The translations under genes and the position numbers were made by a program. The notes beneath the pieces were generated by a model, which saw nothing but the letters and a program-made list of their open reading frames with translations, searched no databases and had not been told where the DNA came from. From sequence record OQ417969.1: a stretch of DNA of 64,000 nucleotides, one strand, 5' to 3'. Positions 62,764-64,000 of the stretch are shown one piece after another. Source of the DNA: Mycobacterium phage prophiT37-1. How positions within the stretch are numbered: the first letter of the stretch is position 1; each line of letters opens with the position of its first letter.

Positions 62764-63735
62764 TTACGCCGGATTGGTCAGCCCGGCGGACGCAATAGCT
62801 GTCACCGAACCGCCCGCAGAATGTCCGGCCCACCGCCGCGATATCGCCCTTGCAGGTGGCCCGGCTGCGGCTGCCATCATCGCGGCGCGCTTCTCGTCGT
62901 CATCCACCGCCGTATAGATCTGGGTAGTGGCGACCGAGGAATGCCCCAACAGCTCCTGCACGGCGCGGATGTCGCGCGTGCCGCGATAGGCCCTGGTGGC
63001 GAAACGGTGCCGGAGTTTGTGCATGGTCCACACTCCCGGCATCGCGGCGGCACAAAGAGTGCCGACCCAGCGCGGCGACAGATGCCCATCGTCGTCGCCC
63101 GGGAACAGGTACCCCTCCGTGCCTAGGCCCGGAGTGTGTCCGCCTGGCCCGGCCATGATCATCTCGGCCACGTAGTCCGAAATCGGAACTATCCGCTGCT
63201 TGCCACCCTTGCCGTGCACCACCAACGAGTAACCGACCAGGTCCTCTACGAGGTCCTGGGTGTGCACCCGTGCCACCTCCCCGCGCCGCAGCCCCGCATC
63301 GTTGGCGAGATACAGCATCTCCATGGTGCGGTCGTCTGCCGCGAGAATCGATTCCTTCCAGACGCGGTCCGGCGCTGGTCTCGGTGTTGGTGGCTCGGGT
63401 GCGACGGCCTCCATTTGGGCCGCTGGGTTGGTCGGCAAGTGTCCCTTGGCGTACGCCCAGCTGAAAAACCCGTTAGTCGTGTTGCGATAACTTCGACGAG
63501 TTTCCCTTTGCCAGTGTGCTTGCTCAGCAAACCAATCGACCAGAGTCTCCTCGGTCACTTCATGTGGTGCACCGCCTAGCCCCCGTGCTAGCCGATGCAG
63601 ATGAGCCATACGCGTTTTGACCGTATCCAGAGACTTTCCATCAGCCTCCATGTAAGTCCGGTACTTCGCGATAATCCCTTGCCACGCTTCCGGTGCGGGT
63701 GTTGGTGCCGGGCCGGTCCCCCTCTTATTTGTCAT
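62764..63735 (-). CDS. int: tyrosine integrase
   Basis: Catalytic R...HxxR...Y motifs (HKLRHRFATRAY, LLGHSSVATTQIYTAV). SAM-like N-terminal domain. Confidence 0.9.
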   Translation of the reverse strand: MTNKRGTGPAPTPAPEAWQGIIAKYRTYMEADGKSLDTVKTRMAHLHRLARGLGGAPHEVTEETLVDWFAEQAHWQRETRRSYRNTTNGFFSWAYAKGHLPTNPAAQMEAVAPEPPTPRPAPDRVWKESILAADDRTMEMLYLANDAGLRRGEVARVHTQDLVEDLVGYSLVVHGKGGKQRIVPISDYVAEMIMAGPGGHTPGLGTEGYLFPGDDDGHLSPRWVGTLCAAAMPGVWTMHKLRHRFATRAYRGTRDIRAVQELLGHSSVATTQIYTAVDDDEKRAAMMAAAAGPPARAISRRWAGHSAGGSVTAIASAGLTNPA

Positions 63736-63972
63736 TGAGTGCGTACCGTAAATCCCGCATAAAAATTCACAGATACTCCAAAGCTATTTGTTACCAAACT
63801 GAGAGATTCATTCACCTGGCAGACGAATCTGGCAAACATCCGTCGCCAGATTCCGTTGCTACGCAGCGGCGGTGTGGCGCCTGGTGGACCACCGCCGTTC
63901 TCGCTGCTCAGAGAGGTCGGTAGGCTCAGTGTCTATGCAGGTCAGCGGGTTTCGAACACCTAACAGAAGGTT

Positions 63973-64000
63973 AGGGGTTCGAATCCCTTCGGGCGCACCA
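63973..64000 (+). other. attR core: 3' fragment of a tRNA gene (T-arm AGGGG-TTCGAAT-CCCTT, acceptor 3' strand CGGGCGC, discriminator A, CCA)
   Basis: Canonical T-loop and CCA at the window end. No matching acceptor 5' strand, D-arm or anticodon arm upstream, so only the 3' part is present, as expected at the int-proximal att site. Confidence 0.5.

Follow-up and report, generated by a model that had tools for sequence, protein, structure and literature searches.

Broussard et al. reportedly described integration-dependent immunity in phage BPs in 2013. In this Cluster G phage, the system comprises the repressor gp33 and the integrase gp32; the repressor made by the phage, of 136 amino acids (aa), is degraded via its C-terminus and does not confer immunity, the form made by the prophage, of 103 aa, is stable and represses the promoter PR, and lysogeny rises when the long form is stabilised (Villanueva et al. 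2015, PMC4557955). For prophages of Mycobacteroides abscessus, Dedrick et al. (2021, PMC8092301) listed Cluster MabK, integrated at attB-1, among those with integration-dependent immunity, described a repressor stop codon formed by the first bacterial base and a viral form ending -AA, and noted that only the truncated repressor form should serve as an immunity marker. Here, we analysed a stretch of 64,000 nucleotides (nt; the window), at whose right end an integrase gene (int) lies beside a tRNA fragment. We are highly confident that this right end is the attR of a temperate M. abscessus phage of the Cluster MabK type, inserted at the 3' end of tRNA-Arg(ACG) (attB-1) and organised on the BPs-type plan of integration-dependent immunity. 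Its architecture is ordinary for a known M. abscessus prophage type, save for a one-base deletion at the tail of the repressor gene.

The nearest public record is prophiGD43A-5 (MW584167; M. abscessus GD43A; 76,541 bp), which Dedrick et al. (2021, PMC8092301) assigned to Cluster MabK and attB-1. It matches window positions 1-25000 at 93.8% nucleotide identity across 71% and the last 3 kb at 82%, with position 1 of the window falling at about 12.9 kb in the record; in Int and the right arm the identity falls to about 75-82%. This extensive similarity, together with the same att core at the ends of that record, places the window in MabK/attB-1. Another MabK prophage at attB-1, prophiT37-1 (76,211 bp), has a polymorphic-toxin cassette that, unusually, reads rightward (Amarh et al. 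2023, PMC9934374), and the rightward polymorphic-toxin cassette and size found here agree with that description; the prophage of the window is probably related to prophiT37-1 as well. Both records share with our prophage the attB-1 core, the architecture and a size of about 76 kb, of which the window covers the right 64 kb. Further afield, Bipper and Cracklewink of Cluster Y, which are free lytically propagated phages of M. smegmatis and otherwise unrelated to the window at the nucleotide level, carry an identical 38-bp core in the immunity repressor gene beside int, and their viral repressor form ends in -DAA.

The att core and the divided repressor gene

The features that define the right end of the window are the following.

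62764-63735, minus strand: tyrosine integrase, 323 aa, ATG start (open reading frame (ORF) list, Pfam, PHROG)
63859-63963, minus strand: the repressor gene's 3' remnant, encoding LGVRNPLTCIDTEPTDLSEQRERRWSTRRHTAAA and a stop at 63859-63861, one base out of frame with the core (translations)
63964-64000, plus strand: attR common core, the 3' 37 nt of tRNA-Arg(ACG) (CAGAAGGTTAGGGGTTCGAATCCCTTCGGGCGCACCA; alignment with the intact attL tRNA-Arg)
63973-63989, plus strand: T arm of the tRNA fragment
63990-63996, plus strand: acceptor 3' strand of the tRNA fragment
63997, plus strand: discriminator A of the tRNA fragment
63998-64000, plus strand: CCA of the tRNA fragment

The int gene comes last in the prophage and reads away from attR. 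Its product matches the Pfam catalytic domain PF00589 (Phage_integrase; E 3e-23, 82.9 bits against a cut-off of 27.1) as well as PHROG integrase families, and it is 55% identical to the Int of Bipper. The N-terminus MTNKRGTGPAP is kept in the prophiGD43A-5 Int, and a protein identical to the window Int adjoins the same core in many M. abscessus assemblies. The C-terminus reads ...LTNPA without an -AA tag, and the MabK Int has been described as lacking an ssrA tag (PMC8092301). From the int start, 228 nt lead to the core and 237 nt to the T arm, in keeping with the original prediction, which had put this distance at about 240 bp and had located the T arm, acceptor strand and CCA accurately at 63973-64000.

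The core is identical at 37 of 37 positions to the 3' end of the intact tRNA-Arg(ACG) gene at attL of three relatives (contigs L016, L017 and L040). It begins 9 nt before 63973, in the 3' half of the anticodon stem, and also spans the variable loop. To the left of 63964 the alignment diverges fully from tRNA-Arg, ARAGORN returned no tRNA gene and Rfam no match in the whole window, and 63964-64000 lacks the complete cloverleaf of a functional tRNA gene. This segment is a duplicated att core and no tRNA gene, as had been predicted from the missing 5' half; the intact tRNA, expected at attL, is found there in relatives that connect to the window through overlapping contigs (L040 to L012/L014 to the window). 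An assignment of CCTAAC-AGAA-GGTTAGG as the long variable arm of a Ser/Leu (type II) tRNA was rejected, because the attL gene is a type I tRNA-Arg(ACG).

On its minus strand, the core encodes VRPKGFEPLTF of the repressor, so that the attP core lies inside the repressor ORF, and the gene's 3' remnant follows at attR, in line with the original prediction of an attP within a repressor gene. In relatives with one more C at the core boundary (the CC allele, described below), the remnant continues the repressor frame, which runs 35 codons past PLTF through WLGVRNPLTCIDTEPTDLSEQRERRWSTRRHTAAA to a stop and ends in -AAA at 134 aa; the prophiGD43A-5 tail has the same length and ends in -DAA. All five nucleotide differences within VRNPLTCIDTEPTDL between the CC-allele tail and that of prophiGD43A-5 are synonymous, which argues that the tail is under coding constraint. 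In the prophiGD43A-5 record, misc_features at both ends (3-143 and 76398-76505) are labelled immunity repressor with the note that attP lies within, and the left end translates into an XRE/helix-turn-helix (HTH) protein that runs through the core and matches Pfam HTH_31, HTH_3 and Phage_CI_repr and PHROG 2328 (transcriptional repressor). The core also lies within the annotated immunity repressor genes of Bipper (gp51) and UmaThurman (gp36), and the annotated attP of BPs overlaps the homologous stretch inside gene 33. In a scan of genome contigs, a tRNA segment exactly matching the core as a 35-mer was listed for at least 120 genomes of actinobacteria; these at least 120 unrelated tRNA-Arg loci did not include an unoccupied attB of M. 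abscessus.

The remainder of the repressor gene was located at attL of related prophages, where a second copy of the core lies about 76 kb away. A database search returned the M. abscessus prophage-form repressors P0001, P0062, P0064, P0067 and P0068, which measure 88-102 aa depending on the called start and all end in ...VRPKGFEPLTF, together with the 129-aa Cracklewink immunity repressor, which ends in -DAA. All loci with these M. abscessus repressors share one attL layout: host genes, tRNA-Ser(GCT), tRNA-Arg(ACG), the repressor reading back into the tRNA, and a divergent excise gene. L040 (GCA_900136665.1) shows tRNA-Ser, an intact tRNA-Arg(ACG) and then the 99-aa XRE/HTH repressor P0064 on the minus strand. 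In L040, L016 and L017 the repressor ends in ...TTC TGA, the A being contributed by the tRNA, which gives 99 aa against 134 aa in the phage form.

The window is tied to this attL by sequence overlap. L014 is 100% identical to window positions 1-5597 and L032 to 52124-63993 (exact-protein look-ups, sequencing runs); these Logan contigs, identical to the window ends, stop within the core, and the link to attL therefore runs via L040. Over 6.8 kb of the left arm, L040 matches L011 at 100% identity and L012 and L014 at 99.9-99.96%, while the left part of the window is 99.9% identical to L012 and 100% to L014 (99.4-100% across L011, L012 and L014). A hidden Markov model (HMM) of the repressor family, built from 61 members, found nothing among the 915 ORF segments of the window (best E-value 0.71). 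These results support the view, as first proposed, that the immunity repressor of this prophage lies to the left of the window, at attL, truncated at the core.

Joining the L040 repressor to the attR flank of the window gives a rebuilt repressor that aligns with BPs gp33 at 54.6% identity across aa 1-113 (E 1e-29), the alignment passing through the core into the tail; it is about 65% identical to the Bipper and Cracklewink repressors and 99% to that of prophiGD43A-5. The attP-type order of repressor, core, remnant and int is seen directly in L030 (GCA_900135215.1, FSGG01000018.1), and repressor and int are likewise contiguous in Bipper and BPs, whereas the window keeps int and the remnant at attR and relatives hold the repressor at attL. 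BPs resembles the MabK-type phage in its arrangement of int, repressor and a divergent rightward early gene, and its VRPEGFEPPTF corresponds to VRPKGFEPLTF in the lineage of the window, placing the attP core in a homologous tRNA-derived stretch of the repressor. In both, the repressor loses about 33-35 residues from its C-terminus on integration, going from 136 to 103 in BPs and from 134 to 99 in the lineage of the window. The two differ in genome size (42 kb against about 76 kb), in the host, which here is M. abscessus, and in the tail, which ends in -KAS in BPs and in -AAA in the lineage of the window and is frameshifted off in the window allele.

From these homologies, we infer the following course of events. 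In the free phage, as judged from relatives, excise would read rightward and then the repressor and the integrase would both read leftward, with the 37-bp attP core inside the repressor ORF, about 35 codons before its end. Integration would move the 5' part of the repressor gene and its promoter to attL, where it would read through the core into the tRNA and stop at a TGA completed by the first host base, yielding a 99-aa HTH repressor. The last 35 or so codons (63859-63963) and int would stay behind at attR, separated from the repressor promoter. By homology with BPs gp33, the long form ending in -AAA would be degraded and give no immunity, and the truncated prophage form would be stable and repress the early lytic promoter.

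A one-base deletion at the core boundary

The window differs from in-frame relatives in a single base at the boundary between remnant and core, with the following consequence.

63960-63962, minus strand: TAG stop in the repressor frame, caused by a missing C (alignment, allele survey)

At 63963/63964, where relatives read CTAACCAGAAGG, the window lacks one C and reads CTAACAGAAGG (in wider context, ...CACCTAACCAGAAGG... in the CC allele and ...CACCTAACAGAAGG... in the window). The repressor frame of the window at the boundary is TTC TGT TAG, and the reconstituted phage form has 100 aa (...PLTFC and a stop) against 134 aa (-AAA) in the CC allele, so that the C-terminal extension, which bears the degradation signal in the BPs-type system, is absent. 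prophiGD43A-5 likewise has the in-frame (CC) tail, unlike the window with its 1-nt deletion. At the same point BPs reads TTC TGT TTA GGA (F-C-L-G), so that, compared with every relative that is in frame, the window allele has undergone a deletion.

Both alleles occur on both right-arm backgrounds. The CC allele is present in L004, L006, L007, L031, L168, L169 and L171-L174, of which L031 is 99.93% identical to the window. The single-C allele is present in L032-L035 and L176, which are 100% identical to the window across the site, and also in L030, L181 and L182, which have an L004-type right arm 98.5% identical to the window. A sequencing error behind the missing C was rejected, because at least five independent runs match the window and three NCBI assemblies on the other background carry the same allele.

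An excised genome with the window allele would encode a 100-aa, tail-less repressor, and its attP junction would read ...TTCTGTTAGG. Because the phage and prophage forms would then differ by one residue, the integration-dependent step has probably been lost in this allele, and stabilisation of the repressor probably no longer needs integration. The deletion is found on two right-arm backgrounds about 1.5% apart and in many M. abscessus assemblies that are independent of one another. That a recurrent natural 1-nt deletion has cut the repressor loose from its degradation tail is a tentative proposal, which we put forward as possible but rather doubtful. This recurrent deletion, detaching the tail, is the only unreported feature that we found; the system itself is already published for MabK.

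Alternative readings and neighbouring features

The first alternative concerns the end of the window. Instead of a simple attR beside host DNA, it could be a junction with another integrated element arranged in tandem, or it could be of the attP type, with the repressor gene coming next, and we judge the chances of this to be evenly balanced. The window ends in ...GCGCACCA. Four assemblies with a direct host flank (L004, L168, L171/177 and L173/179) instead read GCGCAC/TCATCC (the slash marks the junction), followed by host genes for an AHSA1 family protein, an acetyltransferase and a TetR protein. The junction GCGCACCA/TCTAT leads into a second integrative element in many related assemblies, among them L172/L178 and similar places, L174/L180 and L181. 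This element encodes a 387-aa tyrosine integrase, a 191-203-aa HTH protein, small proteins and an NlpC/P60 protein, and extends over about 9.6 kb in L178 (1-9690) and L181, where it is followed by a third copy of the core and then by host flank. In these relatives the second element and the prophage form a tandem array at attB-1, the element possibly being a satellite or a small prophage.

The attP-type junction is found in L030, which reads GCGCACCA/CAG straight into the repressor gene. At 102,589 bp, the draft contig L030 exceeds the phage in length, and its positions 10001-10700 hold the repressor P0073 (101 aa, ending TFC and a stop), the core, the remnant and int; its junction may stem from two MabK prophages in tandem, from excised circular DNA or from an assembly path. 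L182 (contig FVGK01000023.1) ends at the very last base of the window, which is expected if the core plus CCA is a repeat that halts the assembler. Only two bases separate the two classes of junction, and the prophiGD43A-5 record also ends in CACCAT, so trimming at the repeat could yield the same end. Judged on these two bases, it is more likely that the window is followed by another element, or was trimmed at the repeat, than that native host flank follows. A tandem or attP-type junction would be compatible with the integration-dependent architecture.

Tandem prophages with integration-dependent immunity have been described as prophiT36-2a/2b (PMC9934374). In the same way, the attR core in relatives of the window is directly followed by a further element with an integrase gene, and L178 and L181 hold three copies of the core. 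The argument made for prophiT36-2a/2b, that the reading frame of the remnant decides the function of the downstream repressor, applies to the lineage of the window too. Unlike in prophiT36-2a/2b, the att site of the second element here (387-aa Int, 191-aa HTH protein, about 9.6 kb) lies outside that element's repressor gene, and the tandem is seen in relatives. As a separate observation at this site, comparison of the attR flanks (L004, L168, L171, L173) with attL (L016, L017, L040) indicates that the native M. abscessus tRNA-Arg gene seems to lack an encoded CCA (GGGCGCA-CTCATCC). The CCA is supplied by the left arm of the phage and by the second element, so that the tRNA rebuilt at attL has a 3' end unlike that of the native gene.

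The second alternative is conventional immunity, with a complete repressor elsewhere and the tRNA fragment as an ordinary attR unlinked to any repressor. The candidate nearest to hand is the neighbour of int.

62124-62714, minus strand: 196-aa protein, directly downstream of int and co-oriented (no family match)

Residues 1-97 of this protein are 59% identical to gp116 of prophiGD43A-5, which GenBank annotates as 'TetR-like helix-turn-helix DNA binding protein'; the gene beside int in that prophage encodes 98 aa, against 196 aa in the window. An AlphaFold (AF2) model with a predicted local distance difference test (pLDDT) score of 73 is all-helical, with a four-helix N-domain and a long C-terminal helix. 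The model puts an invariant AERMRIGRQAAKYYVT motif in a helix-turn-helix-like position, and the C-terminal ~100 aa form a long helix specific to the lineage. Sequence searches of Pfam, PHROG, PADLOC and PDB gave no HTH, repressor or other family match for the 196-aa protein, and Foldseek of the model against PDB gave none at E <= 0.001 (best E 0.42); a search for homologues was equally uninformative. Nothing in these comparisons suggests that it is the immunity repressor. Moreover, translated in frame, the core and its flank in relatives specify the end of a homologue of immunity repressors that were defined by experiment, and the published annotation puts the MabK repressor at attL, which makes conventional immunity very improbable. 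The original prediction that no convincing repressor lies beside int has stood; its statement that the 196-aa protein has no HTH agrees with our searches but is made less than certain by the 'TetR-like' annotation of its homologue.

A further reading would take the 3' tRNA fragment for a decayed tRNA pseudogene, or for a similarity arisen by chance, with no connection to site-specific recombination. It has only the missing 5' half in its favour and can be dismissed as next to impossible: the fragment is identical at all 37 positions to a functional tRNA-Arg, has in relatives an attL copy about 76 kb away, adjoins a tyrosine integrase and recurs inside the Bipper and UmaThurman repressor genes, the homologous stretch of BPs gene 33 carrying the annotated attP, and the attL/attR pairs in L178 and L181, and in L004 with P0068, refute it.

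Several points weigh against assigning the window to an integration-dependent immunity system. Both attL and the repressor lie outside the window, and the link to them runs through overlapping near-identical contigs from other strains. The last two bases of the window (CA) mismatch the native host flank of the four relatives, and the protein beside int has a homologue annotated as an HTH protein. Sequence anatomy, homologies, the attL structure of relatives and the occurrence of both alleles are observed; repressor stability, immunity and transcription in this phage, and with them the consequences of the deletion, are extrapolated from homology with BPs. The C-terminal extension that defines the system is frameshifted off in the window allele, so the integration-dependent step may not operate.

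The remaining features of the window relevant to this locus are the following.

63736-63858, no strand: non-coding spacer between int and the remnant, presumed P arm of attP (sequence inspection)
63816-63824 and 63829-63837: direct repeats CTGGCAGAC and CTGGCAAAC, respectively, in the spacer
63825-63833 and 63845-63853: 9-bp inverted repeat, GAATCTGGC and GCCAGATTC, respectively, in the spacer
11380-11395, 11428-11443, 14890-14905, 55813-55828, 59980-59995 and 60436-60451: GTATAGCNNGCTATAC palindromes in short intergenic gaps
11838-11855: copy of the GTATAGCNNGCTATAC palindrome with reversed half-site order
56142-59460, plus strand: polymorphic-toxin cassette, with a 109-aa WXG-like protein, a 750-aa toxin and a downstream immunity candidate

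The repeats of the spacer, which are conserved only in part in prophiGD43A-5, are candidate arm-type sites for Int or regulatory sites; a search of 63736-63858 for sigma-70-like promoters found none. In the toxin cassette, the gene for the 750-aa toxin occupies 56471-58723 on the plus strand (ORF list), with Pfam TPR_23 in relatives.

The six palindromes had been proposed as operators of the missing repressor. This was a reasonable idea because the BPs repressor palindrome occurs both at PR and at dispersed intergenic sites (PMC4557955). The window holds six matches to GTATAGCNNGCTATAC (16 bp, up to two mismatches) against 0.04 expected, and they recur at equivalent right-arm sites in prophiGD43A-5, L004 and L030. 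No copy was found, even at three mismatches, in the 10.4 kb attL-proximal arm of the lineage, including the intergenic region between repressor and excise. That region carries a conserved perfect palindrome of its own, TGCGCGTACGCGCA, beside the repressor start, which is absent from the window. Unlike the 12-bp operator palindrome of BPs, which is dispersed in the genome, the dispersed palindrome of this lineage is missing from the repressor control region, and its role as repressor operator is unsupported.

Possible consequences for M. abscessus prophages

For the annotation of this and similar prophages, the attR remnant will escape gene callers, and the immunity repressor is to be sought at the far (attL) end. 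Amarh et al. found culture supernatant to contain the attP of prophiT37-1 (PMC9934374, Table 3); should the window belong to that prophage, this would show that the deletion allele is compatible with excision.

If the deletion has indeed detached the degradation tail, the excised phage would make a stable, prophage-like repressor, and immunity would be independent of integration. The attR of such a prophage would then offer a second phage of this type a permissive landing site, and the repressor of that second phage would end after one extra codon without fusion to a degradation tail. Should the tail be needed to inactivate the phage-encoded repressor, prophages with this allele could lysogenise more readily or induce less productively. 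Since prophages of M. abscessus shape the phage susceptibility of clinical isolates, the deletion allele may be relevant there as well.

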